Assembly (NCBI GenBank): GCA_973895155.1
Contig: OZ316895.1
Coordinates: 5,025,181-5,089,180, forward strand
Direction: 5' to 3'
DNA: 64,000 bases
From: Marsupella aquatica
Taxonomy: Eukaryota > Plantae > Marchantiophyta
Below the pieces are notes generated by a model that saw nothing but the letters and a program-made list of their open reading frames with translations, did no database searches and had not been told where the DNA came from. Made by a program: the position numbers and the translations under genes. Below, piece after piece: positions 13,080 to 58,088 of the stretch. Within the stretch, counting starts at the first letter, position 1, and each line of letters opens with the position of its first letter.

Positions 13080-13820
13080 TCTTCCATGACTCGAATTTAA
13101 CACTGCTCTCTATGTATGAAGTTCGCCAGAACTGATAGCTGCTCCGATCGGTACACCAATCAGCTGTTTGTTTATGTCAACAATGCAAGATAGTTGAATC
13201 GATTCTGTTACAGCTAGTAGGTCTTGTAACTGGTAATGCCGGGCTCGATTTCTTGCAGAGCCCCTTCAACATGGCCATTATTACACGCCGTTATCACGCA
13301 GGGCATCAATCAGAATGTTATAGGTCACTGACTTTGGTTTATGCAAGAAGTGTAGACGATTCTTTCCTTCCTTATATAAATGAGTAAGCAGATAATGTTT
13401 CCCTCCTTTCACCAGCGATTGGACCAAAGCATTACAAGTGACAGTAGTTGAGTTACTATTTGCATCCCGGGCAGGTTGCATGTAACTGAAAACCGCTGAA
13501 GCTTCATCATACCGTTTTGCTTTTTCGTAGGCAATGACCATCGCAGCGAATCTGTACTGGTCAGGCTTACAATTGTCGAGCGACATTGCCTGTAAGTGGG
13601 TATCCGCACGTCACGTCCCATACCTAGAAGCACAGAAGATGACGGTTGATCTTCAACATACATCAACAGAGAGCGCTTAGCACTGACCATTGCAGTAAAA
13701 TGTGTACTGGTCAGGCTTGCAATTTTCGTGCAACATTTCCTGGAAGTGGGTGGGCACACGCACGTCACGTCCTACACCTAGAAGCACAGAAGATGATGGT
13801 TGATCTTCAATACACATCGA
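13080..13820 (-). pseudogene. P-type pentatricopeptide repeat (PPR) gene fragment
   Basis: ORF 13281-13586: CKPDQYRFAAMVIAYEKAKRYDEASAVFSYM, VTCNALVQSLVKGGK, KPKSVTYNILIDAL, continuing past a stop as NGHVEGALQEI. Internal ~160-bp duplication (13540-13670 vs 13690-13820). Confidence 0.85.
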
Positions 13821-16424: not shown

Positions 16425-16655
16425 CTATAAGAATGAAATGTTCTTGGAACCCTGCTTGGAATATTCCAACATTTAATTTAAAATCTCTAATGTTCTTATG
16501 AGTCCCAAAATTGGATCTAGAAGACCCTAACATTAAAGTTCTTTCCAGAAAATTCTAAAATATTCCCTTAATTAATCAGAACCAATATTTAAATGACCCT
16601 AATTTGTTTAGTTGCAATGATGTGCCAGTTTGTGGAAGTGAAACCCCTAAGACAA
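16425..16655 (+). repeat. Dispersed non-coding repeat, copy 1
   Basis: ttggaatattccaa...tgatgtgcca(g/t)tt(t)tgtggaagtgaaacccc is shared with 44730-44920 and, reverse-complemented, with 57890-58088. Confidence 0.7.
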
Positions 16656-27574: not shown

Positions 27575-28445
27575 TTCGTTTTTTTGTGTTTTTTTTCTTG
27601 TCCACTCAATTTAATATTAATTAAATATTATTTTTTTAATACACATTCTCTAAATAAATAGGATTCTTTTTTTTTTTAATCTACATTTCCTTAACTTTTA
27701 AAAAATTTTATTTTAGAATAAAATTTATATAATTTTTCTATTATAAATATTATTTAAAGTTATTAATATTCATCCTCTTTAAAATTAGAATATAATAAGT
27801 TTATTTATATATTAATAATATTTTAAATATAAAATAAAATATGAGGATGAATTTTAATAACTTCTAAAATAATATATATAATAATATTTTAATAATATTT
27901 TAATAATATTGTAATAATATTTTATTATTAATATTATAAAATAATTTTTTATTTTGATAAATTTAATATTAAATAAAAATGTTTTATTAAATATTAAATA
28001 TTAAATATATATTTAAATTTATAATTATTTAAATATTTTTTATTAATTTAATAATATTCACAAATTGATAATATAAGAAATAAAATTATATATAAACCAA
28101 AAAAATATAAAAAATACTAATATTAAATTTAAAAATTATAATTTTTGAATTAATTCCAAAATATTCATTAGAAGAATCATAAATTTAGAAATAAAATTTT
28201 AAAATAAATTTTGAAAATAAATTAAAATATAAAATAATAATTAAAATATAAAAATATGATAGAAAGAAATTTTTTTATGAAATAATAATTATGAGTATGA
28301 AATTATAATAAAAAAAAAAATTTTGAAAAAATATTTATAAATATAAAATTATGATAAAATTTTTCTATGAAATAATAATTAAAAATAAAAAATTATGATA
28401 ATTTTTTATTTTCTTATTTATATTATTTAATTATGTTTTAATCAC
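27575..28445. other. Extreme AT-rich island
   Basis: ~870 bp almost devoid of G/C with sharp boundaries. Internal inverted pair 27757-27777 / 27843-27863. Confidence 0.9.
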
Positions 28446-30749: not shown

Positions 30750-33700
30750 CTATGTTCCTCCGTCGAGGCCAAAGAACACTTTCATTTTGTTGACCTCCGG
30801 CCACTTTGATGGTCGGACCTGGTACACTTTGATATTGTCGATGCTATGGCGTTCAGAGGCAGAAAGCTTCAGCAGGCCACATTCATTTGACGATCGATTC
30901 AGAGGCTTACCATTCATAATGATGAGTATGTGACTATACGTTGTTTTCTACCAATTTGAAAAGTTTGATAAAAGAGTCACATTCAGGTCCCATGGAATCC
31001 CATAACCTCTCATTGTCAACAGTCAAGAATGAATTGAAGGCTTTCCCATACTATATTCTGCACTCTTGGGAGCCCTTGGGAGAGCACTTTTTCTAGAGTT
31101 TAATTTAGACACAGTTGTAGTACAAAATAGTTAAATTGCACTGCATCTTGCCTTCCTAGGTAGGAAAGTTATGGACATTTGAGCAGAATAGGTTCTCGAA
31201 GTGCCACATGATGGATTTTGTAACAAGAACTAGAATCTCATACCACTGAATTTGGCAACGACTTGCCCGTTAGTAGATAGTCACTAAGAGTTTAATTATT
31301 TAATTGATTAACATGGATAAGGGTGCTAGAAATTAGATACTTTTCTCAATTCAACTAGGTGCGGAAACGAATAAGTGCCTGAAGTTGGTGAAACTGCGTA
31401 AACACTTACAATGAGAGGTTCTTCAAGACTGAAATGGGTAAAGAGGAAAATAATAGGTAAAAGTAAACCTACAGTGTGCAACCAAGTGAAAGGAGGCTCC
31501 AAACCATTTTACAACTATGAGTACTAGCAGAGAGATAGATTTGATTCAAAGCATTCTTTAAGTTTCTGTCAAAAGCAGGTTGCATGAGTAAAAACTATTC
31601 AAACTTTTGCATAAAACACTTTCCAGTCCTTCCCAGAAACCTGTTTGAGAGAATTACATGTCCACAATATGTACGTCAGCAAGATTGTGCAAGTAAGGTA
31701 AACATAAGGAAACAAGGTTGTTCCTGACAAAACTATTTTGTATAGCATATGTGACACTTGTCTATCGTTCCAACTCTTTAGCAAGTGTTAGTTCTCATTG
31801 CCCCCTTCTTTCAAAATTCCAACAATCTTTAAGTGTTGCCCATCTAGGGAACACTCAAAAGCCTGTAGCTTCGCAGTCCACAACTCCTCCCAACAAGAAT
31901 GCTTCTTATTCCTGAATGAGGTCTAGGTATCCCAAGAATCCAGGAATTGATCCATCATGGAAAGCTTCAACCAATACATGAGACTGCAATACCAGTCTTT
32001 CAAATGAAGAGCGAGCTTTTAATGCCTTCCAAGAAGCCAATCCTAGCTAAAACAATTCCCTGACAGATGAACCAAACCCTAAACTTGTAACCCAGGCAAG
32101 CTAGAGAAGAGACGGAAAGAGACACTTCACTATGACAATCAATCAGTAAAAGTCTCCGGAAGGGAGAAGAAGCTAAGGTTCTTCCAATGCAATGCATAAT
32201 CAGAGTGACAATCATTTAGACAATCTTATTCCTTTCGGCGTCAAGCATTGAGTCCTTCGGTAGGCAATTTGAGCTCGCTTGCTGGTGATATGACAATCTC
32301 AGGAATATTGGACACTTGATCTGACTCAAAACCTACCAACCCAATATGTCCGGCAAAATTGGGCAAGCTACATACCAAATATTCATAATTGCTAAAGCTC
32401 TGTCAGTGAAGTGTAGCTATATGTAGGGTTATATGCGTTACAGTTCAATAAATTAGTTTGGAAAGATGAGCCTTGAAGTAATACCAATACCAGTATTGAC
32501 AGCAGTAAACCCTAAAATCTCTTCCTCTACTTTAATTAATGGACGGTAGGCTCAAGTTGGATATGTGTTAGTATTTCAAGTACTCACCAATTCAAGGGAC
32601 ATGTCCAGTGATGTTCCTAACCCGATGAGCTTCCGTGCGTCTTTCAGTGCCCATAGTTCTGACCAGCGTTTTGGTCATGCTCAGCTAGAATTAACCATCA
32701 AGTGTAGGGAGTCTGGAGTCAAGCCATCAGGGATGTGGATCGTATGTACAGGTGCAAAACACAGCTCAAGTAACTTCTCCCTCACATCATTTCTGCATGG
32801 TACTGGACACAACATAATTTATGGAAGAAGATAAAAAGGGGAAATCAACATATATTGGGTACTGTAAAGAAGGTTCGCTGGATTTATCTTGTCACTGATT
32901 CTAGATAATCCAAAAGAGTTTATCTCCAAGCAGATTAAGCCAGGGCGAGGAATTAGGTTGTTTACATGGTCTTTCTCTCTGAAGTGCACGTACAAAATTG
33001 GGACCGAAGATGTAGATGTCAGAATTTGAACTTGTCCAGAGCTAGTGTACCTAAGAAATCCACATCAAAGTTTTTTTTACTCACCTGTCGATCAGTTAAG
33101 TAGACGGACAGTACACCTACTGAGCTGAAGTCGTGTCGATCTAGCCTTCTCCGTCCACAGATCTCTGGGTTAAGGCAAATGTTCAAGTTCTAGTTAGAAT
33201 CAGACTTTAGCCGTCGGTCATGACACCAGTACAAGCCAGGAGTTTTCATCAAAAATCAAACTCGTTTATGCTTACTATAGGCAGTGTCTCGACAATATGC
33301 TAAGTCTAATCAGAAGGAAAATGGTGCGCTTAAGAGTTTAGATCAACCTGAAGTCCATGATTCAAGCTTTGGGCCACCATGTGGAAAAAAGTGCCCTTCA
33401 AAGGAACCTCACCACATTGATCACTCTTGCTCCCTTGCTGTATAGCAACAAAACTAGGCCTTCGAAGCCTAACCTCAATGCCAGCTTAGTTGCCATAGTT
33501 GGTGAGTTCACTTAGAATTCTGGCACTTTGCCCATTTATATATGATTTATTTTATGATATTTATAAAAAACCCAACTCACGATCCACATCATGGCTCTTG
33601 TCTACTCCAAATCCTGGCTCCAGAAAGCTAGCCTGGCGTTGATGCAGAGTGAACAAAATCATCTATTGATCAGCGACAGTCATGGTGAGTCCCATGAAAT

Positions 33701-33967
33701 GGACCCCACTGGTTCTAGATCGATACAACAATCCTTCTAAGGCAAGTGAACTATGGGAAATATATATTGGCAGCGGCAGCGTGCACTTCATGTGTAATCT
33801 TACAACAGTGTGAACTGCTAGGAAGGGAAACCAATGCTCCCGCATGCAAAGCCAGTCTTATGCGAGGACTTCAAGAAAGACTGCTGAGCTCAGCTGATGC
33901 ACGAAGTTGCCACACATCCACTTTCCTGGTACAATGCAAGCATGTTACATGACAATTTTAAATTCAT
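30750..33967 (-). pseudogene. NLR pseudogene copy 1 (alpha), most of NB-ARC deleted
   Basis: Reverse complement of copy 3 except for a ~1.5 kb deletion at ~32510-32520. LRR remnants LTYILWTCNSLKQVSG (ORF 31599-31784) and PFRRLLLIDCHSEVSLSVSSL (ORF 32000-32215). Confidence 0.8.
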
Positions 33968-34392
33968 GGACAGTACAAGAGAGACAAGATCCACCAAAGG
34001 GAGGCAAGCTACTGTACCCTATGAGGACACAAATCTGTGGGGAGCCCTTGGGCAGTTTTGGGCCCTCTCTAAGTTTGTTTTATTGTTAAACAAAATCAAA
34101 TAAAACCTATTGAGGTATGGTGGGAACAATATATCGATCCCACCAGTTACCACCGATCCCATTGGTATCCATCAACGACCCACAAGGTGACCAATGAAAT
34201 CAACCTAATTTGCATCAACTCACATGTTAAGGTTGGCTCAATTACACGGATGGTATTTACTCTCTCTCTCGCCCCCATCCCCCCAAGCCTTTTATATTTA
34301 GCCTCTTTAAATCATGATTTAAATTTTCTTTTTTTGGTTACACAGAAGTCAAACATGCAAAGAGAATGAGGTCTTTCAGGAAGCTCTCGCAT

Positions 34393-37300
34393 GTCGCCTC
34401 CACTTCGTCACCCACAGAGCTCGAATTTCACAGAAAGCATCTCCTACTCTGTAAAACCAGGTTACAGAAGCAAGACGTGAGTTAGCATCCTATCCAACTG
34501 ACTTCAGCAACGGCTTGCCCCGTTAGTAGATAGTCAGTACGAGTTAAGCAGTTTAATTGATTACAATAGACAATGGTGCTGGAAATTACAAACCTTATCG
34601 CAACGTAGACTGCAGGAAACGAATGACTGCCACATATAAATCATTAACTACGTAAAATCTAGAGTGCCATGTGTAAACAGACATGAAGAGCTTAAATAAA
34701 CTTTGAGAGTGTCCAGTACAACACAATTAGACAGTACACTCGCACATTTTACGGCGGTGAAATTGTACAAAAAAAAATCGAAAAGAAGTTTATATTTGAC
34801 AGAAAAAGTGTTATTTAGAACTTTCGCTTTTAACACTTACAGTCCTCGCCAGATATCTGTTCCAATTGAAGAATGTAGGGTCCACTGCATGTCTGCAAGG
34901 TCGTAAAAGGCAAACAGCAGAAAAACCTTCAGGATTACATTTCCTAGCTAGGACTGTTTCTCCTCCTGTTTGCCTTTTAATTACAGATTCCCCGTCGGTC
35001 CTAGACAACATTCTCACTTGAGTTGAGCACCATATTCTCGGAATATCTCATGATCACAATAACGCAACACCTCTTTAATTACCCGAGTTTTAATCGTTAG
35101 CATTACCCCTCAAGGGAACACTCAAAAGTAGCCTCGCAGTACGTCTGAAGCTCCTCCCAACATGAATTATTTTTTCCTGAGGTCTAGCCATCCCAAGAAT
35201 TAAAGAATGATGGAAGCCTCAAAAGATGAAAATATTATCCCAGTCTTTCAAGTGGTTGTCCATCTCTGATTTTCTTCAGAAACGCCAACCGACAAAAAAC
35301 TCCCTCACAGATGGAGTACAATCTGGAGTAAGACAAAAATTGTCCCAAAAATATATTGTACTATACCCGGAGAGATTGAAGAGAGGGAAACAGATTGAAC
35401 CTTTACTTTGACAATCAATCAGTAAGCTCTGCAAAGGAGAGGACAGGTGTTCTTCCAATGAAAAACAGGATCAGAGCGACGAACTTATTCACATAGAGCC
35501 CTTGAGTAGGCAATCTGAGCACGCTCAATAATGCTAGGCACACGACAAGCTCAGGTAATGTTGGTCACTTGATCTAACTCCAAAAAGTACCGACCCAGTT
35601 TCAAAACTGTGTCAGTAAAGTATAGATTTATACTTTGCAGTTTCAGTAAGTTGGCCTTCCAAGATGAGCCTGGAAGTGATGGCAAAACCTCCTTCGCATC
35701 AAATTAAAATTGAAAGCAGTTGTCAACACATAGACTGTCTGTCTGCCCCGATTAAACAAGTGAAGTCATTAAACAGCCTCACCAGCTCATTCGTGTATCG
35801 ATATATGCGGGAAGAGCATACAAACAGCCAACATGACTCCGGATACTGAAGAATTTCTTGGACCGGCTCTTAAATCTGTCATGTCTGCTGTAGGGATGTG
35901 CAAATTGGAAGCTCTTAATAGCAGGCTGCTCGGTCTGGAACTAATCCCTAGAATTCTTCAATACAAGACTTTGGAGCAAAGGCTTCAGTAAAACAGGTAT
36001 GATCACTCCAAATGACCTAGACGAGGATAATAACAAACCACCGCCGTTTTTCGTTACCCCTCACCGCCCCTCAGTGGTAAACTGTCCAACTTCTAGAGGC
36101 GTACGCAATTTGTCCGTGCTCGGGAAAGCTCGATAGTGTTAGAGGAGCTGCCTTTTCACAACTGGGTATCGAGTGTTATATTGTTGTTTGTGGTGTCTGA
36201 ATTCAATACGTTGCGCATCAAACATGATCTGGACCTAACCCAGCAAAATAACAGACGCGGGCTACCAACTTCTTAATAAGTAGCATACAGACTAATGTAG
36301 ATGGCTAGAATGGCGCTGGCAAACAGCCTGCCCCGATTTTGAACGTAACCCAAACCAACCTCAGTTGTGTGAACGAATACTCCCCAGTACCCACATGATC
36401 AAGGTGGATACTAACCCGTAAAATGCGTGGATGTCGAATCAGCTACAACTCTCTATACATGAAAGAGTAATCACAGTGAGCTTACATAAAGATGGCAATT
36501 GGAAGACGCACAACGAAAATTGCTGTACTCACTATTTTCTTCGGTGTCTGTAGTCCAAGTTACACAATTCAAGCTTTCAAGATGAACTATCTGGACCGAG
36601 ATCTTTTGGCCTGGCCGGGACTCTGTGAGCAAGCTTCTAAGTCGACGGAGATAATTAACGTCCGGTCACATGAATTATCCCAAGGGTGATATGAAGAGAT
36701 CTAATGTCAGTGAGTTCTAGTTACAAAGACGATAACTTCACGTTGATTGAGCAAAGAGCTTGCATCTTGACTGTTCTTGCGTCAGAGAAAGCAGCTGCAG
36801 CTTCGTTCTGAGAGGTATCCTGCCACCCTGACTTATAATGCATACCGCCTAATTACATTGATTTCTTAGTCATCACATGTGTCTTATTTTGGAAGCTTTT
36901 ATTTGAGTACTTTAATGGACGGCAGGCCCAAGCTGGGTCTGGGTTAGTTTGAAGTCGTGATGCTGAGCAAGACCACCTTATCCGGGATACGCCTAGTGAT
37001 GTACTGTCGACCCCACAAGCTGCGATGTAGTTTTTGCATTGTAAATATTCCATCGTTTTAGTCAAAGCCTCAGTTAGAATGGACTATCAAAACCGAGAAG
37101 TCAAGCGAACGTTGTTCAGGATTTTTAGGTGCAGGTACAAAGACAGATTAAAGTAAGTTCTCCCTCATGATGATTTTGGAGTATTCTGAAAGGACCTCAG
37201 CTCTCTGGTAGTAGTTACAGCATCTATGGAAGCAAAATTGGGGGCGAAGTCAACATAGGGTACCTTCCTGGATTAACCTTGTGGACAAGCGGTGAGCTAA

Positions 37301-38413
37301 TTGTTTTGTCTGAGTGGAGACACTTCTGATTCTAGAAAATTCGAAACAGTTTCTCGCCAAGCAAAGGCTAGGGCGAGGAATTACTGTAGGTCCTTTACAT
37401 GATTCTTTCTCTCGTTATGGGTACGTATGAAATTGGGAAGTTGTAAACTACTGTTAGAATTCAAACATGCCCAGATTAAAGATGACGTATACACGAAATG
37501 CACATCAAAGTTTTCTTTCCTCACCTGTTGATCAGTTCACCGTGTGCCCTCAGGTGTGCCATGACAAAAACCTAAGTCGGCTTGATCAACGTAATCTACA
37601 ATCTCCGTTCACAGACCTATGGGTTGAGACATGCAAGTTAAAGTCAGACTCAGACTTTATAGTGGTCATGTCACACCAGTACAAGGTAGGACTTTTCATA
37701 AAAAATCAAACCCGTTGTTGCTCTACTATATAATCACAGTATCGACGAAATCAGAAGGAAATGGTGCTCACCCGAGTTTAGATGAATTGACTTGAAGACT
37801 ATGATTCAAGAGTCGGGCCACTAAGTGGAAGACGGTGACCTCCAAAGGAACTTCACCACATCGATCACTCTTCAAGCAAAGAAACTAATCCTTCGAAGCC
37901 GCAAAGCCACCTTGCCACAGTTGGTGAGTTTGTTGAGAATTCTGGCAGTCTGCTCATGTTTGTATGATCGTTTATGATCCATAAAATTCCAACTCGCGAT
38001 CCTTCCTCGATGCAATAGACAATCTACTCTTACCAGCAAAATGAACGGTCTTGCCTGCTCTAAATCCTGTTCCGGAAAACTCGCGCAGGAAAACATTTTC
38101 TATCAATCGGCAACCAACAAGGTGGCCAAGAAATCACACCGGTTCCATATCCATACAATCATCATCCTTCCAAGGCAAGTGAAGCACGGGGAGTATAGGT
38201 GACAGCAGCGTGCATCTGATGGGTAGATAACTACAGGAGTCTTGCACGACGATGTGAAGGGAAACCATGGCAAGATCGGAGCTAGTTTTCCAGCGCTACC
38301 TGAAACGCTGAGCTCAGCTGGTGGACAAAGTTGGCACACCATCACTTTCAACGGTGTCCGTGCAATGCAAACGTGTTACACAGCAACAGCGCTCTAAACA
38401 TAACAATGAACAT
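34393..38413 (-). pseudogene. NLR pseudogene copy 2 (beta)
   Basis: Reverse complement of copy 5 and colinear with, but more diverged from, the alpha copies (e.g. DLEQARPFILLVRVDCLLHRGRIASW vs DLEQARAMMWLVRADSLLRSRRIVSW). Confidence 0.75.
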
Positions 38414-39625
38414 TTTCAGGATTAAAAAAACGCGTGAACAGTACAACGGGGACAAGATCCACTTAACAATCCAATTAGAATCGACCAAGGGTAACCAGCA
38501 ACCTAGCATAATTATGATGAGACCAACTCTGTGGCAATCGTACCATTCTCACATGTTCTCAGGTTGAAGTAAATTGGTCAATTTATGTTTGATTTTCAAG
38601 GATAGTTGCAATGCTTGTTTTGTCTGTCAGGTGTCTTTAATTACATACACCAAGTCTACATACGTATTGGTGAATTTTTGTCCGAACTACATTTAAAATG
38701 AGTTGTTATGATGTAATTATTATGGATGGATGGATTTCCTTTCTCCCGGCAACCCTGGAATGAATCACAATTTTAGGGAAACTAAATTAATCCCCTTTGC
38801 AATCTCCAAAATCAATTTTTGAAATCCCCACCGCCGATCTCTTATTTGTCTCGAAGCTTATTGCTTCCATGTTTGCCTCTCCAAGGACTGAACTTGTCTT
38901 CATTAAACCCCAAATATTAATGATTGTTTTGAGATTCTATGTTCCAAGGATCAAATTCTCTTTGCATGTCATGTCTGGAGGTAACTGCACATCCAAATGT
39001 GACATATATTATGTACAACATCTCTACATACAGTGATAATCCTAGTTTGTTTTTTTCAATCAATCAATGTAGTCACATTTTGATGTGTGATTACCAGCAC
39101 GTCATGTGTGCCTCTCCAAGGACTGAACTTCTTTAAATCCCAATATTAATGATTGTTTTGTGATTCTATGATCAAATTCTCTTTGCATGTTTGACATGCG
39201 AGAACTTCCTGAAAGACCTCATTCTCTTTTGCATGTTTGACTTTTGTGTAACAAAACAAAGAAATTCTAAATTATGATTTGAAGAGGCTAAATATAAATA
39301 TAAAAGAGAGGAGGGGGGGGGGGGGGGGAAGAGACTAAATACCATCTCCCCTCATTGAGCCAACTATAACATGTGACTTGATGCAAATTAGGTTGATTTC
39401 ATTGGTCACCTTGGGGGTGGTTGATGGATACCAATGGGATTAGTTGTGACCGGTGGGATTGATCTATTGTTCCCACCATACCTCCATACTTTTTATTTGA
39501 TTTAGTTTAACTTACAATAAAACAAACTTAGAGAGGGCGCCCAAGGGGCTCCTTGCAGATTTATGTCCTCATACGGTAGAGTAGCTTGCCTCCCTTTGTT
39601 GTATCTTGTCTCTCTTGTACTGTCC
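38414..39625. promoter_or_regulatory. Divergent intergenic region between copies 2 and 3 (mirrored at 45734-46857)
   Basis: Lies between the inferred 5' ends of two oppositely oriented NLR remnants. Contains tataaatataaa (~39293), a TTGACT W-box core (~39237), a long G run (~39312-39328) and two ~100-bp internal repeats. Confidence 0.5.
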
Positions 39626-42600
39626 ATGAATTTTTTAATATTGGAAAATTGCTGTGTAACACGCTTGCATTGTACCAGGACCATTGAAAGTGGATGTGTG
39701 GCAACTTTGTGCATCAGCTGAGCTGTCTTTCTGGAAGTCCTCACATTAAACTGGCTTCTTGCACGCAAGCAATGGTTTCCCTTTGTAGCAGTACACACTG
39801 TGTAAGATTACACATCAAGTGCACGCTGCCACCTCCAATATCTCCCATAGTTCACTTGCCTTAGAAGGATTGTTGTATCGATGTGGAACCGGTGGGGTCA
39901 ATTTTATGGGACTCACCATGACGTTGCGATCTATAGATGATTTTGTTCACTCTGCATCAGCACCAGACTTTCCGGAGCCAGGATTTGGAGCAGGCAAGAG
40001 CCATGATGTGGCTGGTAAGAGCAGACAGCTTGTTGCGTTCAAGAAGGATCGTGAGTTGGGTTTTTATGGGTGATAAAATCAATCATACATAAATGGGCAA
40101 AGTGCCAGAATTCTAAGCGAACTCACCAACTATGGCAACTAAGCTGGCGTTGAGGCTTTGAAGGCTTAGTTTTGCTGCTATACAACCAGGGAGCAAGAGT
40201 GATCTGTGTGGTGAGGTTCCTTTGGAGGGCACTTTCTTCCACGTGGTGGCCCAAAGCTTGTATCATGGACTTCAGGTTCATCTAAACTCATAAGCACACC
40301 ATTTTCTTTCTGATTAATAGGCTTAGCATACTATCGATACATTGCCTATAGTACTTAAGCATAAAAGACTTTGATTTTTGATGAAAACTCCTGGCTTGTA
40401 CTGGTGTCATGACCAACTGCTAAAGTCTGATGCTAACTAGAACTTGTTTGCCTCAACCCAAAGATCTGTGGACGGAGAAGGCTAGATCATGCTGACCAAC
40501 AGTCACGACTTCAGCTCAGTAGTTACGATCCCTCTCTTAATTAACTGATCGCCAGGTGAGTAAAGAAAACTTTGATGGGGATTTCTTAGGTACACTAGCT
40601 CTGGACAAGTTCAAATTCTGACATCTACATCTTTGGTCCCAATTTTGTACGTGCACTTCAAAGAGAAAGACCATGTAAACAACCTAATTCCTCGCCCTAG
40701 CTTTTAATCAGCTTGGAGATAAACTATTTCTGATTAATTATCTATAATTAGTGACAAGATAAATCCAGCAAACCTTCTTTATGGTACCCAATATATGTTG
40801 ACTTCCCCCTTTTTATCTTCTTCCATAAATTATGTTGTGTCCGGTACCATGCAAAGAGGCCCTTTCAGAATATTCCAAAACTGATGTGAGGGAGAAGTTA
40901 CTTGAGTTGTGTTTTGCACCTATACATACAATACACATCACTAATGGCTTGACTCCAGACTCCCTACACTTGATGGTTAATGTCAGCTGAGCATGACCAA
41001 AACGCTGGTCAGAAATACGGACACTGAAAGACGCACTGAAGCTCATTGGGTTAGGTACATCACTGGACATGTCCCTTGAATTGATGAGTACTTAAACTAC
41101 TATCATAGATCCAACTTGAGCCTGCCGTCCATTAATTAAAGTAGAGGAAGGGAAGCTTCCAAAATAGGACACCTGTGATGACTAACACTATGAAGTGGTC
41201 ATGCATTTTAGAAGTCAGAATAACAGATTATCTCAGAGTGAAACAAAATCTGCGTTCACTAATCATGCGAGAACAGTCCAAATAGAAGTTGTTTGCTCAA
41301 TCACTATTTCATAAACTGTTGAACTTCCTGACTCTTTGTAACTTTGGCAATTGGCTAATTTAAAACTCTTGGTTTGCACACTTGAGAGAGTTTATTGTGA
41401 TTGGCAGTTATGCCCGTTGACATAGAAATCTGAAGCTCATTAAGATATAGTTTAAGGCCAATAGATCATGTACTAAAATGGTATATATCCTCCACATACT
41501 TCATCTCTAAAGCTTGAACTGTGCAAATGATTTTTCCCCTAGCCTTGTACCCCGCCTTAAACAACATTAAACAAATAGTGGACAGAAATATATTTGTGTC
41601 ATCTCATGTTTCATCATTTTGTACATAGGTTCTAAGACATTGATTACTTCTGAGGGCTCTTGCACATTTCCATTGTCGCAGTTGTTTATACATCGACGCA
41701 TGTTGCGGGCTACTTCCTGAACTTTTGGGCGTGTCGGGGCAACTGTTGAAGCCATGCACGTAAGGTTGGTAAGGGAATTTTCAAAATTGGAGCTGGCTCT
41801 TTGCCAACGCCATTCCAACTGTTTCCGTTTGTCTATTCCAGAGCTAAATGGCTTATTGAGAAGTTGATGGCCCACTATCTATTATTTGGCTAGGTACAGT
41901 TCACTATTTTGCATGTGCAACTGCTCTACAAGAATTCAGACACCCCAAAGAACAATAACACGCTACAGAACAAGTTGTGAAAATTAAAATTAGTTGTTGT
42001 ACATATTACTCTCAGGCCTTTCCAAGCACGGAGAAAGTGTCTAAGCCTAAAGAAGTTGGGAGTTTTTGCCACTGAAGAGTGCTGACAGGTCATGAAAGAC
42101 GTGTGGTGTCTTGCTATTAATTACCCTCATCTAGGTTAGTTTTAATTGATCATATGCTTTTGGTTGATCTAACCTATTTTAGTTTTTTTGAATGCGCAAT
42201 TGATGAACTAAGATGCACTTTGTCGGGCATTTTGTAGTTGACAGACTAAGGTATGCCTGACAACTCGCATATATGATCCTTCATAGAACAGATGGTCAAT
42301 TCATTAATTCAATACTGCAGACACGATTAGTACCTTGTCAATCAATTGATTGTATTGGTGTGGATGTCTAAGATAAGTTGTTGTTGCTCCAGAGGTGATG
42401 ATCTGGAATCTTGTTTGGTGTTTAGCATATATATGCATATATAGTATCGCTTGCATGGTTTCCAAACCAAGCAATGTGTTGGGATCCAATTTAAACTTCC
42501 ATTTTGAAAATCCTACTAACAATCATTACCAAATGCTTGAATGTCCTAAAGTCTTTGTCTGTCTTAGCAGTGTGCGCTTTTCGCATTGATAGCCAGATGA

Positions 42601-44400
42601 ATGATTTGGTGAGGTTGTCACTTGCAAAACAACTTACTTCTGTCAAAATTGGTATTGGTTACTTCGAGGCTCATCTTTCCAAACTAATTTACTGAACTGC
42701 AATTGCAACTGCAATGCATACATCCCCGCATATATCTACACTTCACTGGTCACATGTAGCTTTAGCAACATTTGAATATTTTGTACCCTGCCAGGTGTAC
42801 GTAGTTTGCACAATTTTGCCGGACGTATTGGGTTGGTAGTTTTCAAGACAGATCAAATGTCCAATATTCCTGAGCTTATCGTGTCACTAGCAAGCGAGCT
42901 CAAATTGCCTACTGAAGGACTCAACGCTTGACGCTGGAAGGAATAAGATTGTCTATTTAAATGATTGTCACTTTGATTCTGCATTGCATTGGAATTATAA
43001 CACCTCAGTTTCTTCTCCCTTTCAGAGACTTTTACCGATTGATTGTCTTAGTCAAATTAGTGGACATCTCTTTCAGTCTCTTCTCTAGCTTGCCCGAGTT
43101 ACAATTTTTGTTGAAGTCTAGATTTTGCTTCATCCGTTAGGGAACTGTTTTAGCTAGGATTGGCTTCTTGTAGAAATTGAAACTAGCTTTTCATTTGAAA
43201 GACCGGCAACTATTGCATTCTCATCTGACTATTGGTTGAAGCTTTCCATGATTGGATCAATTCCTGGCTTCTTGGGATACCTAGGTCTACCTCAGAATAA
43301 GAAGTTAGCATTCTTGTTGGGAGGAGCTATGAAGTGTGAAGCTACTTTTGAGTGTTCCCTAGATGGGCAAAGTCTCTTAAAGATTGTCAAAATTCTAAAA
43401 GAAGGGGGCAACTAGAACTAACACTTGCTAAAGAGTTGTAACGACAGACAAACGTTACATATTCATGATATATTGACAGAATAGTTTTGTCACAAACAAC
43501 AGACCTTGTTTCCTTCTTTACCTTACTTGCAGAATCTTGCTGACATTCATAGTGTGGATATGAAATTCGTCAAGTGAACTCAAACAGGTTTCTGGGAAGG
43601 ACTAGAAAGTGTTTGATGCAAAATTTTGAATAGTTTTCCTCATGCAACCTGCTTTTGACAGAGACGTAAAGCATGCTTATATGTACATCAAATTCATCTC
43701 TCTACTAGTCCTTGCAATTGTAAAATGGTTTGGATTCGCCTTTCACTTGTGCTGCGGTTGCACACTCTAGGTTTACTTTTACCTATTCTTATCCTCTTTA
43801 CCCATTTCAGTCTTGAAGAACCTCTCATTGTAAGTGTTTATGCGGTTAATTTCACCAACTTCAGGCGCTTATTCATTTTCTGCACCTTGATCAGTCATTG
43901 AATTTAGAGAAACTTGTATCTAATTTCTCGCACCCTTAATATCCATGTTAATCAATTACATAGCTAAACTCTTAGTGACTATCTACTAACAGGTAAGTCG
44001 TTGCCAAATTCAGTGGTATGAGATTCTAGCTCTTGTAACAAAATCCATCAATGTGGCGCTTCGATAACCTATTCTGCTAAAATGTCCATAACTTTACTAC
44101 CTACTAGGAAGGCAAGATGCAATGCAATTTAACTATTCTGTATTACAATTGTGTTTCAGAAAAAGTGCTCCCTCAAGGGCTCCCAAGATTGATCTGAAAT
44201 ACATCTATATACATACTTTTACCTTTGAAAAGCCACACATATCTTTCCAGTCGCTTCCATGGTTGACTGGAAACAGAAATTCCACTCACAGTCAAAAGTT
44301 TTTTACCAAAGGACCTGAACGTGACTCTTTTATCAAAGTTTTTGAATTGGCAGGAAAGAACGTATAGGACTCACATACTCATCATTATGAATGGTAAGCC
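39626..44400 (+). pseudogene. NLR pseudogene copy 3 (alpha), most complete: lipase-like domain, NB-ARC, LRR
   Basis: Motifs in canonical order across stops and frameshifts: degenerate P-loop KLIGL..ITG..P*I(G/D) (~41040-41095); RNBS-B-like NLKLLVCT (~41358); GLPL-like ELCK*F-PLAL (41516-41548); LLHISIVA and RNBS-D-like CLYIDACCGLLPE (~41655-41725); WLIEKLMAHYLLF...ILHVQLL, MHD region (~41848-41930); LRR-like SFIEQMVN, LNVLKSLSVL, FPSLPYLQNL, SLPISVLKNLSL. Confidence 0.85.
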
Positions 44401-44612: not shown

Positions 44613-44920
44613 TCACGGCGTAGACCAAACCGTACTACCAAGCAGAGGTCTAGCTAGTGTACAACAAATTTGCCGAATGACAAAGTTTTGTTTGCCAATA
44701 TCAAATTTGTTGTACACTTGCCTAAACAATTCCCCTATAAAGTTGGAATATTCCAAAATTTTGGTTAGAAAGATCCTAATATTCTTATAAGTCTCAAAAT
44801 TGAATTTAAAAGACCCTATTGTTCTTCTGCAAAACTTCTTAAGTCTTCCCTTCAAACCAATAAAACAACCCTATCCTTCGTCGCACGTGATGTGCCATTT
44901 TTGTGGAAGTGAAACCCCCG
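44613..44920 (+). mobile_element. Dispersed repeat copy 2 (probable non-autonomous TE fragment) at the rearrangement junction
   Basis: 44730-44920 matches 16425-16655 and the reverse complement of 57890-58088. It separates the end of copy 3 from truncated copy 4. Confidence 0.65.
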
Positions 44921-45733
44921 AGACTTTAGCCGTTGGTCATGACAGTACCTTGTACAATCAAGAGCTTTCATCAAAAATCAGACTCGTTTATGCTTACCAT
45001 AGGCAGTGTATTGACAGTATGCTAAGCCTAATCAAAAGGAAAATGGTGTGCTTATGAGTTTAGATCAACCTGAAGTCCATGATACAAGCTTTGGGCCACC
45101 ACGTGGACAAAAGTGCCCTCCAAAGAAACCTCACCACACAGATCACTCTTGCTCCGGCCCTGGCTATATAGCAGCGAAACTAAGACTTCAAAGCCTCAAT
45201 GCCAGCTTAGTTGCCATAGTTGGTGAGTTCACTTAGAATTCTGGCACTTTGCCCATTTATGTATGATTGATTTTATTACCCATAAAAACCCAACTCACGA
45301 TCCTTCTTGAACGCAACAAGCTGTCTGCTCTTACCAGCAACATCATGGCTCTTGCCTGCTCCAAATCCTGGCTCCAGAAAGTCTGGCGCTAATGCAGAGT
45401 GAACAAAATTATCTATTGATCGCAACAGTCATGGTGAGTCCCGTGAAATTGACCCCACGTACTGGTTCCACACCGATACAGCAACCCTTCTAAGGCAAGT
45501 GAACTATGGGAGACATTGCGGCGGCAATGTGCACTTGATGTGTAATCTTACACAGCGTGAACTGCTATGAAGGGAAACCATTGCTTGCGTGCGAGAAGCC
45601 AGTCTTATGCGAGGACTTCCAGAATGACCATTGAGCTCAACTGATGCACAAAGTTGCCACACATCCACTTTCAACGGTTCTGGTACAATGCAAGCGTGTT
45701 ACACGGCAATTTTCCAGGATTAAAAAAATTCAT
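44921..45733 (-). pseudogene. NLR pseudogene copy 4 (alpha), N-terminal lipase-like part only
   Basis: 44921-46160 is a direct repeat of 33202-34392 and the reverse complement of 39190-40430. Confidence 0.75.
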
Positions 45734-46857
45734 GGACAGTACAAGAGAGACAAGATCCATCAAAGGGCAAGGGAGGCAAGCTACTGTACCGTATGAGGAC
45801 ACAAATATGTGGGGAGCCCTTGGTAGGTTTTGGGCCCTCTCTAAGTTTGTTTTATTGTTTTAATAAAATCAAATAAAAAATATTGAGGTATGGTGGTAAC
45901 AATCGATCCCACAGGTTACCACCAATCCCATTGGTATCCATCAATGGCCAGCATGGTGACCAATGAAATCAACCTAATTTAGATCAAGTCACATGTTATG
46001 GTTGGCTCAATTAGGGGAGATGGTATTTAGTCTCTCTCTGCCCCACCCACCTACCCACCTTTTATATTTAGCCTGGTCAAATCATGATTTAGAATTTCTT
46101 TTTCTTTTGTTACACAAAAGTCAAACATGCAAAGAGAATGAGGTATTTCAGGAGTCCTAGCATGTCAAACATGCAAAGAGAATTTGATCCTGGAAGATAG
46201 AATCACAAAACAATCCTTCATATTTGGGCTTTAGAGAAGTCAGATAAGCTCAGTCCTTGGAGAGGCAAACATGACATGCAAAGAGAATTTGATCCTGGAA
46301 GACAGAAATCAAAACAATCATTAATATTTGGGCTTGAAAGTAGATAGGTTCAGTCCTTGGAGAGGCAAAGTAACATGGAAGCAATAAGCTTCAAGACAAG
46401 TAAGAGATGCCGTTGGGGATTTCAAAAATTAATTTTGGAGATTGAAAAAGAGGATTAATTTAGTTTCCCTAAAATTGTGATTCATTCCAGGGTTGCTGGG
46501 AAACACGTGAATCCATCCATATTTACATAATCATTTTAAATCTAGTTCGGAAAAAAATTCCCAAATAAGTATGTAGACTTGGTGTATGTAATTAAGACAC
46601 CTGACAAGAACAAAACCAGCATTGCCACTATCCTTTAAGACACCTGACAAGAACAAAAACAGCATTGCCACTATCCTTGAAAATCAAACATAAATTGACC
46701 AATTTACTTCAACCTGACTGCACAATTAGAACTGAGAACATGTGAGAATGGTACGATTGCCACAGAGTTGGTCTCATCATAATTGTCGTAGGTTGCTGGT
46801 TACCATTGGTCGATCTTGTCTCCCTTGTACAGTTCACGAGTTTTTTTAATCCTGAAA

Positions 46858-49800
46858 ATGTTCATTGTTATGTTTAGAGCGCTGTTGCCGTGTAACACGT
46901 TTGCATTGCACGGAAACCGTTGAAAGTGATGGTGTGCCAACTTTGTCCACCAGCTGAGCTCAGCCTTTCAGGTAGCCCTGGAAAACTGGCTCCGATCTGG
47001 CAATGGTTTCGCTTCACATCGTCGTGCAAGACTCCTGTAGTCCTCTACCCATCAAATGCACGCTGCAGTCACCTATACTCCCCGTGGTTCACTTACCTTG
47101 GAAGGATGATCGTATGGATATGGAACCGGTGGGCGGTGGGATTCGTGGCCACATTGTTGGTTGCCGATTGATGGAAACTGTTTTACTGCTTTCGCGCCGA
47201 GTTTTGCGGAACAAGGATTTAGAGCAGGCAAGACCGTTCATGTTCCTGGTAAGAGTAGATTGCCTATTGCATCGAGGAAGGATCACGAGTTGGCATTTTC
47301 TGGATCCCAAACGATCATACAAACATGAGCAGACTGCCAGAATTCTCAGCCAACTCACCTATGGCAAGGTAGCTTTGCGGCTTCAAAGGATTAGTTTCTT
47401 TGCTTTGCAGCTAGGGATCTGGAGCAAGAGTGATCGACGTGGTGCGGTTCCTTCGGCGGTCACCTTCTTCCACTTGGTGGCTCGACTCTTTAATCGTAGA
47501 CTCCAAGTCAATTCATCTAAACTCGGGTGAGCACCATTTCCTTCTGATTAGACTTATCATACTGTCGATACTGTGATTATATGGTAGAGAAACAACGGGT
47601 TTGATTTTTTATGAAAAGTCTTACCTTCTACTGGTGCGACATGATCACCATAAAGTCTGAGTCTGACTTCACCTTGCATGTCTCAACCCACAGATCTGTG
47701 AACGGAGATGGGAGTTTACGGTGAACAAGACGACTTGGGTTCTCGTCATGGTACACCTGGGGGCACACGGTGAACTGATCAACAGGTGAGGAAAGAAAAC
47801 TTTCATGTGGATTTCGTGTATACATCGTCTTTAATCTGGGCATGTTTGAATTCTAACAGTATTTTACAACTTCCCAATTTCATACGTACCCATAACGAGA
47901 GAAAGAATCATGTAAAGGGCCTACAGTAATTCCTCGCCCTAGCCTTTGCTTGGCGAGAAACTGTACCGAATTTTCTAGAATCAGGAGTGTCTCCACTCAG
48001 ACAAAACAATTAGCTCACCGCTTGTCCACAAGATTAATCCAGGAAACCTTCTCTACGGTACCCTATGTTGACTTCGCCCCCAATTTTGCTTCCACAGATG
48101 CTGTAACTACTACCAGCGAGCTGAGGCCCTTTCAGAATACTCCAAAATCATCACAAGGGAGAACTTACTTTAATCTGTCTTTGTACCTGCACCTAAAAAA
48201 TCCAGAACAACGTTCGCTTGACTTCTCGGTTTTGATAGTCCATTCCAACTGAGGCTTGACTAAAACGATGGACTATTTACAATGCAAAAACTATATCGCA
48301 GCTTGTGGGGTCGACAGTACATCACTAGGCGTATCCCGGATAATTAAGGTAGTCTTGCTCAGCATCACGACTTCAAACTAACCCAGATCCAGCTTGAGCC
48401 TGCCGTCCATTAAAGTACTCAAATAAAAGCTTCCAAAATAAGACACATGTGATGACTAAGAAATCAATGTAATTAGGCGGTATGCATTATAAGTCAGGGT
48501 AGCAGGATACCTCTCAGAACGAAAGCTGCAGCTGCTTTCTCTAACGCAAGAACAGTCAAGATGCAAGTTCTTTGCTCAATCAACGTGAAGTTATCGTCTT
48601 TGTAACTAGAACTCACTGACATTAGATCTCTTCATATCACCCTTGGGATAATTCATGTGACCGGACGTTAATTATCTCCGTCGACTTAGAAGCTTGCTCA
48701 CAGAGTCCCGGCCAGGCCAAAAGATCTCGGTCCAGATAGTTCATCTTGAAAGCTTGAATTGTGTAACTTGGACTACAGACACCGAAGAAAATAGTGAGTA
48801 CAGCAATTTTCGTTGTGCGTCTTCCAATTGCCATCTTTATGTAAGCTCACTGTGATTACTCTTTCATGTATAGAGAGTTGTAGCTGATTCGACATCCACG
48901 CATTTTACGGGTTAGTATCCACCTTGATCATGTGGGTACTGGGGAGTATTCGTTCACACAACTGAGGTTGGTTTGGGTTACGTTCAAAATCGGGGCAGGC
49001 TGTTTGCCAGCGCCATTCTAGCCATCTACATTAGTCTGTATGCTACTTATTAAGAAGTTGGTAGCCCGCGTCTGTTATTTTGCTGGGTTAGGTCCAGATC
49101 ATGTTTGATGCGCAACGTATTGAATTCAGACACCACAAACAACAATATAACACTCGATACCCAGTTGTGAAAAGGCAGCTCCTCTAACACTATCGAGCTT
49201 TCCCGAGCACGGACAAATTGCGTACGCCTCTAGAAGTTGGACAGTTTACCACTGAGGGGCGGTGAGGGGTAACGAAAAACGGCGGTGGTTTGTTATTATC
49301 CTCGTCTAGGTCATTTGGAGTGATCATACCTGTTTTACTGAAGCCTTTGCTCCAAAGTCTTGTATTGAAGAATTCTAGGGATTAGTTCCAGACCGAGCAG
49401 CCTGCTATTAAGAGCTTCCAATTTGCACATCCCTACAGCAGACATGACAGATTTAAGAGCCGGTCCAAGAAATTCTTCAATATCCGGAGTCATGTTGGCT
49501 CTTTGTATGCTCTTCCCGCATATATCGATACACGAATGAGCTGGTGAGGCTGTTTAATGATAGCACTTGTTTAATCGAGGCAGACAAACAGACAGTCTAT
49601 GTGTTGACAACTGCTTTCAATTTTAATTTGATGCGAAGGAGGTTTTGCCATCACTTCCAGGCTCATCTTGGAAAGCCAACTTACTGAAACTGCAAAGTAT
49701 AAATCTATACTTCCCTGACACTGTTTTCAGACTGCGTCGATAGTTTTTTGAGTTAGATCAAGTGACCAACATTACCTGAGCTTGTCGTGTGCCTAGCATT

Positions 49801-51230
49801 ATTGAGCGTGGTCAGATTGCCTACTCAAGGGCTCTATGTGAATAAGTTCGTCGCTCTGATCCTGTTTTTCATTGGAAGAACACCTGTCCTCTCCCTTGCA
49901 GAGCTTACTGATTGATTGTCAAAGTAAAGGTTCAATCTGTTTCCCTCTCTTCAATCTCTGAGGGTACAATATATTTTTGGTACAATTTTTGTCTCACTCC
50001 AGATTGTACTCCATCTGTGAGGGAGTTTTTGTCGGTTGGCTTTTCTGAAGAAAATCAGAGATGGACAACCACTTGAAAGACTGGGATAATATTTTCATCT
50101 TTTGAGGCTTCCATCATTCTCTAACTCTTGGGATGGCTAAACCTCAGGAAAAAATAATTCATGTTGGGAGGAGCTTCAGACGTACTGCGAGGCTACTTTT
50201 GAGTGTTCCCTTGAGGGGTAATGCTAACGATTAAAACTCGGGTTATTAAAGAGGTGTTGCGTTATTGTGATGAGATATCTCGAGAATATGCTGCTAAACT
50301 CAAGTGAGAATGTTGTCTAGGACCGACGGGGAATCTGTGATTAAAAGGCAAACAGGAGGAGAAACAATCCTAGCTAGGAAATGTAATCATGTTTCTTCTG
50401 CTGTTTGCCTTTTACAACCTTGCAGACATGCAGTGGACCCTACATTCTTCAATTGGAACAGATTTCTGGCGAGGACTGTAAGTGTTAATCTAAATAACAC
50501 TCTTTTCTGTCAAATATAAACTTCTCTTCAATTTTTCTTTGTACAATTTCACAGCCGTAAAATGTTGTGAGTGTACTGTCTAATTGTGTTGTACTGGACA
50601 CTCTGAAAGTTTATTTAAGCTCTTCATGTCCTTTTACCCATGGCACTCTAGACAACTTATAATTTTACGTATTAATGATTTACATGTGGCAGTCATTCGT
50701 TTCCTCCAGTCTACGTTGCGAGAAGTTTGTAATTTCCAGCGGAATTGTCTATTGTAATCAAAAAATTACTTAACTCGTACTGACTATCTACTAACGGGCA
50801 AGCCGTTGCCGAATTCAGTTGGATAGGATGCTAACTCATGTCTTGCTTCTGTAACCTGGTTTTACAGAGTAGGAGATGCTTTCTGTCAAATTCAAGCTCT
50901 AATCTTCTCCTCTCACTTCCTCTCTTGCAAAGGTCAGAACCGTAAAATGTGAGTCTACTGTCGATTATTGTACTGGAATGGCACTGTCTAGGATTATTTT
51001 AGCTCTTCCTCAAGTTTCCTTTTCTACGCATTGCACTCTAGACGAACTCCTCATTTATGATTGCCTGTGGGTGACGAAGTGACGGCGATCATTCGCTTTC
51101 TGATAATCTCTATCATTCTGCCTAATTCAGTGGGATGAGATGCTAACACACGTTACAAAATCCGTTATTTACCATCAACTTATCAACTAACCATCCTACA
51201 AATGTTCATGAGTGTGCCGCCATGTGGGGC
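46858..51230 (+). pseudogene. NLR pseudogene copy 5 (beta)
   Basis: Colinear with copy 3: RLPIASR, CGSFGG..HLVARLF, *APF (lipase-like); QLVG..YIT..P...SLAQ (P-loop region, ~48300-48365); LLIKKLVAR (~49040); LRR-like QLEQISGEDCK (~50450). Multiple stops. Confidence 0.75.
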
Positions 51231-54627: not shown

Positions 54628-55292
54628 TTTGACTCCAAAAATACAATAGAATACCAAACTCCATTGGTGGATCCATTTTTTCCAACTAACTCCAAAAATG
54701 TAATATGAATACCAAACTGGATCAGTGGATCCATTTTTCCGACCAACTCCAAAAATGCAATATGAATACCAAACTGGATCGCTCGATCCACTTTAATTTT
54801 CCCATTGACTACAAAAATGCAATATGAATACCAAACTCCATTGGTGGATCCATTTTTTCCAACTGACTCCAAAAATGTAATATGAATACCAAACTGGACC
54901 GGTGGATCCATTCTTTTCGACCAACTCCAAAAATGTAATATGAATACCAAATTGGATCGCTCAATCCACTTTTTCCCATCAACTCCAAAAATGCAATATG
55001 AATACCAAACTGGATTGCTGGATCCATTTTCGAATTGACTCCAAAAATGAAATATGAATTATACCAAACTGGATTGATAAATTCATTTTTTACGATCGAC
55101 TTCAAAAATACAATATGAATACCAAACTCCATTGGGGGATCCATTTTTCCAACCCACTCCAAAAATGCAATATAAAACCAAAAATGCAATATAAAACCAA
55201 AAAGGCATTTTTGGATCGACTCCAAAAATACAACATGAATACCAAATTGGATCGATGGATCCATTTCTCCAACCAACTCCAAAAATGCAATA
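54628..55292. repeat. Minisatellite, ~58-60 bp unit, ~11 copies
   Basis: Consensus approximately actccaaaaatgcaatatgaataccaaactggatcggtggatccattttttccaacca. Confidence 0.95.
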
Positions 55293-57889
55293 TTAATACA
55301 ACAATTCGGACTACAATAATGGATTGGTGGACCTATTTTTTCCGTCCACCTTAAAAAATGCTTTCAACTGAATTGCACCTTGCCTTCTAGAGTTGATTGT
55401 AGTTGGCTAATGATAACCACAGTCAAGCAATATATTGGAATGATCAAACAAGTGATGTAAATTTTGGACACTTACATGGGTTAGGGCTTTTTGAGCGCCC
55501 AAAACGCTTGTTTGATCAGACAATGGATACATGGATCCACTTTTGTATTCAATTGTTATTTTCTTTGAATTTTTTCTATCAAAGGGCTTTTTCCTCACAA
55601 ATACCACATCTGTATCGGACCATTTTTTGCCTTAGAATGTTTTTGAGCGCTAGGAAAATGAAAAGTGTGTTCTCGTGTGGTCGGTCAGTGTGTTTTAGAC
55701 TAGCATTGGGAGCTAATTGGGTCATGAGAAGGGGCAAGCTTAGGGTGGACTGTCTGGACCCTCAAACAAACTCTAAGTTATGAGGGCTTGAGTGAGAGCT
55801 CCTCTTGAATGGGCCCAAAGCTAAGGAAGTTTAGTTCATGCATGATCTTCCATTTGTCCTCCATTCTTTTATGTTTGTGATGTTGGATTGTGACTATGCT
55901 TGGATATGTGTGACAAGCGATGTGCATTGTGTACCAAGTGTATGCACACAACACATTGTAGGTAAAGTTCACAAACAAGAAAAAGATGCATGAGGGTCAG
56001 AAATGTGAGGAGAGCAACATTTGGAAACAGTGTTTTTATTTCAGGAAATTGAAAGACAAAATTGATAGTGATGCTTTAAGTATAGTAGCACTTTGCTGAA
56101 GCTGTTGTTTAAAATGTTAAAACACTGATGCATCAGTATGAACAAACAATTTCAAGTGATTCATTGATAGTTGATTTTATTTTTCCTGAAGTTGAAGAGT
56201 AACTATGACGGTTAAATTTTGTTTTTTTGCCCACGGCTCTGTGTTGGTTGGAATGTTGTTGGTTTTTTTTTCAAAAAATTTATGTTCCCAATTTGCATAA
56301 CCATTTTTGGGGGCATTGAACCAAACACAAACGGGTGTCTGTGAAAATTCCAAACATGCACTTTCGGCTTAGGGTGGAAATTGGCGACATGGTGTAATGA
56401 CATGCCAAGAATTCTGCAAAGAACATGTCATGGGGTTTTGTAAGCATGTAACTACGTTTATTATTGCATGTAACTAGGATACAAGTGGTCCCAAACAGAT
56501 GGAAACATGGTGACAAACCACTCAAGAAATGGACCAGAAACTGACGGAGAAACTGACAAAACATTGACTGGATACAAAACTGTATACAATCCGTATATCC
56601 TACTTTGCATTCACCTCACTAGCTTAATTTTCAACCTGTCTACTGAAAAGAAGCAAAGGTGGGTAAAAGTGCCCTGATTACTGGACCTGCCAGAATATTC
56701 AAATTTATACTCTGCAATTGCTAAATTTAGATAATGTGGTTTAAAAAAATATTTGTTTAAATATCATAGTAGTTAGTTATGGTTAACCACAACTAACATT
56801 AAAATATGTAAATAGAAAAGAAGATTGTACTCTCATTTTTTTGGCCCAAGTTTATTCATGATCATCTTCAGGAATTGCAGACCCGATTGCAGATCTGAAT
56901 GCAGATCAGTATTCAGGAAAACAACAACAAATGCAAGGTCAGAATTTAACCAGTTTTTTTTGCATCCATTTCAGTTTTCTTGGACTTATAAGTTTAGGTG
57001 CGATTGCGCAGATGCCAATTCGTCCAAGTTTTAGGCTCTTGATAAGAAACAACACTCACACTAGTGCTTGGCAGTTAGTAATTCAAGATGCGGTCCTCCC
57101 ATTCCATATTTGAAGTCAAAGTGTTGGGGTTCTCAAAAGGAACATGTGGATTAGCCCTTAGCTGTGCAAACTAAGTTCCAGGGAGAGAAAACAATTATCC
57201 GGATTGGCCTTAGGAATCTTAGGAATCCAAAGTTAGTGAGATCTGCAAAAATCCCATTTCATATTCAGAGTCAATTTTTCAGAGTCCCAAGAGGAATGAG
57301 GCAAAATCACGTGACTAAAGAATTCAATGTGGGATATGTAGATCCCATTAAGTTTCCTTCTTGACCTCAGAGTTTGAGGGTCCTAATAGGAAAGAGTCAG
57401 ATTTGCGCTGCAATTTGCGCCTAGGAATTTGAAGTCAGATCTCATTTCATATTTAATTGAGCTCAAAAGTTCCAGGCCCCTGATAAGGAGCATGGGGGTT
57501 TGCACTTAAGAATCTAAGGTTGGAGTCACAGTCAGATCCCATTTTGTGTTCCTCCAAGAGTTTTGGGGTCTTTCTAGAGGAAGGAAATGGATTACCCCTT
57601 ACAAACTCGTTTTGATCCACAATGAAGTAAGTTGATGAGTTTATTATAGGTCATCTTGTTTTAATGGGAGTTGTTTTAAAATGCAATCCAATCAATAGTT
57701 GTTGATGAAAGACTCACAATTGGTCCAATAATTGTACACATGTTAGAGGTTGTTCCCAGAGCTAAGAAGTTACCCAATTTTGTAACCTCCAGCTGAGACA
57801 ATTGATACAAGAGGCCACCAACATTGCATATTGTGAAATGTGGATGTGGCAGATGTTTTTAATTTAAAAAATCTGGCAAAGAGTCTCCA

Positions 57890-58088
57890 AAGTTTCCCCA
57901 AGGGTTTCACTTTCACAAAAATGGCACATCACATGCGACTAAAGATAGGTTCATTTTATTAGTTTGAAGGAAAGACTTAAAAATTATTGCAAAAGAATAA
58001 TATGGTCTTTTAAATTCAGTTTCAAGACTTATAAGAACATTAGGCTTTTTCTAACCAAATTTCAAGAATATTCCAACTTTATAGGGGT
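57890..58088 (-). repeat. Dispersed repeat copy 3
   Basis: gggtttcactttcacaaaaatggcacatcacatgcgac...gaatattccaactttataggg is the reverse complement of 44730-44920. Confidence 0.8.

Follow-up and report, generated by a model that had tools for sequence, protein, structure and literature searches.

A unit of about 4.5 kb occurs as five decayed copies within 20 kb of liverwort DNA, and the copies fall into two subfamilies, alpha and beta, with 61-67% identity between them. They lie in a window of 64,000 nucleotides from Marsupella aquatica (contig OZ316895.1, positions 5,025,181 to 5,089,180), the whole stretch of DNA that was analysed. The repeat cluster is real and broken. Our preferred explanation, which we put forward tentatively, is that a single old sequence gave rise to all five broken copies; it was likely an immune-receptor gene of the NB-ARC-LRR (NLR) type, now dead, whose N-terminal 2 kb has decayed beyond recognition. 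The initial annotation of this DNA had proposed a class-3-lipase-like domain in that N-terminal part; this lipase-like front end scores no better than shuffled DNA, and a class-3-lipase domain is not supported and appears quite unlikely. As the proposed front end behaves like shuffled DNA, the finding is probably an ordinary one.

Liverworts are described as possessing NLRs (PMC3352924, PMC11218826), and these include a hydrolase-NBS-LRR class, described as HNL by Xue et al. 2012 (PMC3352924) and as Hyd-NLR by Chia et al. 2024 (PMC11218826). For HNL genes, three conserved phase-0 introns are reported, along with an NB domain that belongs to an HNL clade (PMC3352924). Hydrolase-NLRs are a dominant class in liverworts, are presented as the major class in Marchantia and have been likened to lipase-like proteins (PMC3352924, PMC11218826, PMC10952240, PMC5039405). 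One review likens the bryophyte hydrolase domain to lipase-like proteins, names EDS1 as a possible analogue and gives the biochemistry of bryophyte hydrolase-NLRs as unknown (PMC10952240). EDS1 itself has been described as absent from seed-free plants (PMC11218826), and a preprint reports divergent EDS1 copies in ferns (bioRxiv 10.1101/2025.03.18.643875).

Results

Five decayed copies in two subfamilies

Self-BLASTN and alignments bear out the five copies and two subfamilies of the initial annotation. The copies, and a short element lying between two of them, are arranged as follows.

31061..34395, minus strand: copy a2 (alpha), from self-BLASTN; it lacks the segment matching a1 41154-42633 (internal deletion)
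34416..38977, minus strand: copy b1 (beta), from self-BLASTN; head to head with a1
39193..44191, plus strand: copy a1 (alpha), the subject of the initial annotation, from self-BLASTN, alignments and six-frame translation
44732..44922, no strand assigned: short high-copy element, apparently MITE-like, from self-BLASTN; between a1 and a3
44921..46279, minus strand: copy a3 (alpha), 5' part only, from self-BLASTN, alignment and contig mapping; it terminates at the high-copy short element
46266..50900, plus strand: copy b2 (beta), from self-BLASTN; head to head with a3

Six-frame translation shows copy a1 to be disrupted by numerous stops and frameshifts. Copy a2 matches it in two blocks, with BLAST identities of 83.6% and 80.6%, and b1 and b2 are 91% identical over 4707 columns in self-BLASTN. 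Over aligned columns, identity is 87-91% between alpha copies, 94-96% between beta copies and 60-69% between alpha and beta. Indels of non-triplet length make up 46 of 56 for a1/a2, 22 of 29 for b1/b2 and 85 of 117 for a1/b2. The a3/b2 pair is an inverted copy of the b1/a1 pair, and a2 stands in tandem after b1.

Four sequencing runs from two organisms contain the stretch, and contigs that differ from it in about 10% of their letters map onto it, so related copies exist. One run has a deep alpha-like contig at 43255-43678, where depth is not a copy number, and no RNA run is among those listed as matching the stretch. Self-comparison and inspection of the copies revealed no terminal repeats common to them, and Rfam, plasmid and phage searches gave no matches. 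The apparently MITE-like element at the a3 end has two more copies in the window, at 16456-16653 and 57902-58087, and summed contig depth in its bin exceeds 60,000 in three of the four runs. A 105-bp unit is repeated at the alpha/beta head-to-head junctions (38868-38969, 39103-39190 and 46169-46369), and a 24-base inverted repeat stands on both sides of 38980-39095, a bin with raised contig depth.

NB-ARC and LRR signals

NB-ARC and LRR profiles were built from RNL-like loci and from the 120 long NLRs listed among 254 matches. With these and the motifs of the initial annotation, copy a1 can be divided into three segments.

39600..41700, plus strand: N-terminal 2.1 kb of alpha/beta homology, containing the lipase-like motifs (39702-40300)
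41712..42797, plus strand: candidate decayed NB-ARC domain, tentatively placed (ADR1-type profile score 66.8)
42800..44060, plus strand: probable decayed LRR region (LRR profile score 94.9)

The LRR profile, made from 8 bryophyte and lycophyte NLRs, attains its 94.9 on the plus strand with alpha and beta read together, a level reached by none of 120 nulls; on the minus strand, 13 of 40 nulls reach the observed score. Single copies give less: the two alpha values are reached by 4 and 1 of 100 nulls, the beta copies are at null level, and the noise of the profile is such that 2 of 70 background tiles reach the a1 score. An LRR score of 74 on the strand opposite to that of b1, taken as a candidate opposite-strand gene, was rejected, being absent in b2, in a1 and in the two-lineage test.

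The ADR1-type NB profile scores 66.8 over 41712-42797, as does only one of 250 nulls. This profile consists of 6 closely related sequences, and its signal is only a hint because about ten profile-setting pairs were tried. The P-loop position of about 41700 in the initial annotation agrees with the start of this single NB-ARC signal. An alternative placement made by eye, which put the P-loop near 42080 and the later NB motifs within 42650-43450, was dropped when the profiles did not bear it out. The ADR1-type and LRR profiles peak in adjoining segments of the plus strand, in NB-then-LRR order, and each peak is the best of eight segment-strand cells (for the ADR1-type profile at 41700-42800, none of 40 nulls scored as high there). 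On 42800-44060 the ADR1-type score is equalled by 2 of 120 nulls. Furthermore, the candidate NB-ARC domain of about 360 codons and the LRR region of about 420 codons have lengths that fit those domains.

The general NB-ARC profile (128 sequences) found nothing on single copies or as a motif chain, and in the two-lineage reading 28 of 60 nulls scored as high. A 9-sequence bryophyte NB profile and a 12-sequence mix gave no signal, and for a broader RNL profile of 9 sequences, which takes in RPW8 together with the P-loop and first half of the NB domain, 23 of 60 nulls matched the score. Held-out domains carrying 20% substitutions and 2% indels were all found by the general profile (16/16) with scores of 57-163, against 37-44 on the copies. 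These negatives are not decisive because the controls fade into noise at 25-30% decay. Stop avoidance was significant on neither strand, and no plus-strand frame piece matched Pfam NB-ARC (PF00931) or LRR. The fossil NB-ARC-LRR of the initial annotation gains modest support from the LRR profile (0/120) and one ADR1-type profile (1/250), with three other NB-ARC or RNL profiles at null level.

Lipase-like motifs: frames, stops and codons

The motif letters on which the lipase proposal was founded can be read in a1 close to where they had been placed, but they do not share one frame and are not identical in both subfamilies. In a1, three motifs lie in frame +3: the first one at about 39702, the strand-like one at 40029 and the elbow-like one at about 40215-40232. 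Frame +1 contains a stretch with a Trp (40051) as well as the helix that follows the elbow, and frame +2 the strand preceding the elbow. In a1 as in the alpha consensus, the three main motifs stand in one frame and in Lipase_3 order, and the distance between strand motif and elbow, about 64 codons, agrees with the Lipase_3 profile. The elbow-like motif is one residue short of Gly-x-Ser-x-Gly, no Asp or His of a catalytic triad was identified, and frame +3 carries stop triplets common to alpha and beta at 40167 and 40200 (all five copies) and at 40212 (four of five). Both beta copies have Ser in place of the conserved Phe in the 40029 motif, and two residues of the first motif differ from alpha.

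Around the elbow, strand, elbow and helix are spread over three frames within about 45 bases in each of the five copies, so that reading them as one frame requires two or three frameshifts in that interval, common to all copies. Such shared frameshifts are possible only if the gene was dead before the alpha/beta split, and this conflicts with the claim that alpha/beta differences record selection. That claim, drawn from third-position codon differences at the elbow-like site, also fails on the codons themselves: of the four, the first three are of alpha type in b1, and two of the three third-position differences are therefore private to b2. No codon-phase signal was detected over all ungapped blocks (p 0.64 and 0.996); with 12-15% neutral decay imposed on real coding pairs the test loses its power, so its outcome speaks neither for nor against a coding past.

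A candidate remnant of the old reading frame lies in b2.

46976..47530, plus strand: 184-codon open frame in b2, matching a1 at about 39740-40290

This length is reached by 7 of 500 local shuffles, and the open stretch has no Gly-x-Ser-x-Gly. Its frame has the fewest stops in all five copies and differs from that of the elbow motif. No homolog was found in the PDB, in the ESM Atlas (best score 0.78) or with phmmer, which returned no match at E 0.001 among 1.84 billion representatives.

Tests for a Lipase_3 domain

The Lipase_3 family (PF01764) includes the lipase-like domain of EDS1, PAD4 and SAG101. Our own Lipase_3 profile comprises 75 bacterial proteins, chosen among 111 candidates by their motifs, and each of the 10 that were checked belonged to PF01764; because the profile is bacterial, a divergent plant, EDS1-like or HNL-type domain could be missed. 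The segment 39600-41700 gave no signal with the Lipase_3, RPW8, NB or LRR profiles. Read frameshift-aware, the Lipase_3 profile gave null-level scores on all five copies, both locally and over the whole profile, and the frameshift-aware comparison with PF01764 that the initial annotation had suggested came out at null level in the joint alpha/beta reading, whose score was reached in 62 of 100 gap-preserving nulls. A three-motif chain at the motif site scored 25.0, against a mean of 34.5 on 58 background tiles and 116-176 on 20 intact lipases. As controls served 15 simulated held-out lipases, to some of which 20% shared decay had been added; their scores of 51-318 all exceeded the highest null value, 49.7.

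None of 12 plus-strand frame pieces matched Pfam Lipase_3; together with 18 further pieces they gave only three unrelated Pfam matches, at E 0.1-0.2, and DUF676 and related families matched in no single frame. Bacterial proteins gave few matches of the DUF676 type, and those were weak. The PDB set that was searched would be expected to include EDS1-family chains, and the motif-region frames found no match in it at E up to 10. A designed-PPR match in the PDB, made up of 3-4 bit pieces, was rejected, as was a PDB match at E 1.1. The structure model of alignment A3 has a mean pLDDT of 39.2. A class-3-lipase N-terminus is thus without support from Pfam, the Lipase_3 profile, the PDB or two large protein searches.

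Search for relatives

No intact relative of the unit was found with phmmer among 1.84 billion representatives or in size-limited protein searches. A search with alignment A5 among proteins of 609-2000 residues retained none of 7891 candidates at E 10, which is weak evidence, and the NB region of a moss-like NLR, compared with proteins of 1139-3250 residues, brought up no PF01764 among the 120 listed of 254. We found no paper on a Lipase_3-NB-ARC-LRR class in the open literature, most subscription journals falling outside that coverage, and the word lipase has no occurrence in the main text of PMC11218826, whose supplement may list such architectures. Two metagenome contigs, L001:608-3805 (+) and L028:1475-4672 (+), carry an intronless 1066-codon RPW8/Rx_N-like NB-ARC-LRR open frame whose NB region shares 69% identity with a protein from Sphagnum.

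Rest of the window

The sole intact gene of the window, at 9643-11799 on the plus strand, is a homologue of the NBR1 autophagy receptor with PB1, ZZ, N_BRCA1_IG and UBA domains in Pfam. It forms one uninterrupted 718-codon frame with 78% identity to a protein of Calypogeia fissa; the next named matches, from Marchantia and Riccia, are at 44-45%, which points to a leafy liverwort as the likely host. The intronless gene may be a retrocopy or may reflect a lineage-wide intron loss. A PPR-repeat fragment at 13284-13610 on the minus strand (Pfam PPR_2, E 2.9e-8), lying in a 154-bp tandem duplication (13531-13822), looks like a broken PPR gene. A tandem array at 54632-55299 consists of 11.4 copies of a unit of about 58 bp with 75% matches, and 27609-28401 is very AT-rich (GC 0.25-0.31), with short tandem and inverted repeats.

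Discussion

Taking the three NLR readings together, an NLR origin of the unit is probable. The unit might instead be what is left of a different dead gene or of a transposon, or be old non-coding DNA, the motifs then being chance readings aided by free frame changes; we regard this as somewhat unlikely. It would account for the lack of any Pfam, PDB or large-database match, for the absent codon-phase signal and for the failure of most NB-ARC profiles where controls decayed by 20% were all found; however, those controls fade at 25-30% decay, NB and LRR signals come in the right order on one strand, and the copies show no common terminal repeats.

Among the readings that accept an NLR, one makes the unit a dead member of the liverwort HNL/Hyd-NLR class, whose alpha/beta-hydrolase would, on activation, act on a lipid-like molecule by cleaving or binding it; we consider this unlikely. 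In the HNL hydrolase domain, the distance between an elbow motif and the strand upstream of it is roughly that seen in a1; the host is a liverwort, and the proposed hydrolase-NB-LRR order is the same. The prior for this class is high because it is the major one in Marchantia polymorpha, reported as 36 of 43 (PMC3352924). Unlike HNL proteins, however, the unit shows no hydrolase domain (its single frames lack a DUF676 or related match), stops interrupt the elbow-like frame in common, and about 1.4 kb is unexplained between the motifs and the likely P-loop. Moreover, the HNL NB domain is reported to group with those of TNL and PNL proteins (PMC3352924), whereas the NB signal here came from an ADR1-type profile. 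That single signal is the likeness to RNL proteins (ADR1/NRG1), from which the unit differs in that the profile joining RPW8 to the first half of the NB domain was negative and in an N-terminal part of about 2 kb, far above the size of RPW8.

The initial annotation's own idea, a class-3-lipase or EDS1/PAD4-like domain ahead of NB-ARC-LRR, we judge to be quite unlikely. Three short motif-like stretches in one frame of a1 and the alpha consensus follow the order and, roughly, the spacing of Lipase_3, and the first motif of the unit presumably resembles the N-terminal helix of PAD4. The unit is unlike Lipase_3 in lacking a profile signal by copy, by motif chain or by two-lineage reading, an intact Gly-x-Ser-x-Gly and an identified triad Asp/His; the incomplete elbow needs frameshifts common to all copies, all 15 simulated lipases rose above the null maximum, the PDB offered no match, and no PF01764 occurred among the 120 NLRs listed. 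Even if a hydrolase N-terminus were present, it would most simply be that of the described HNL class.

Under our preferred explanation, the decayed NB-ARC-LRR gene, the living gene would have encoded a receptor working as a nucleotide switch, with LRRs at its C-terminus and a signalling domain of some kind at its N-terminus. Its inactivation likely predates the alpha/beta split or falls close to it; duplication of the head-to-head pair in inverted orientation, with a tandem copy, would then have spread the unit locally, and the unit likely produces no protein now.

As it stands, the cluster adds another case of decayed gene copies, probably derived from an NLR, and it teaches little. That leafy liverworts possessed in the past, and perhaps still possess, an EDS1/PAD4-like class-3-lipase fused ahead of an ADR1-like NB-ARC-LRR seems very unlikely; such a fusion, if true, would be a one-gene form of the EDS1-helper-NLR module, whose parts are separate proteins in seed plants. 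An intact lipase-NB-ARC-LRR relative, if one exists, would provide a handle on how lipase-like proteins joined helper NLRs.
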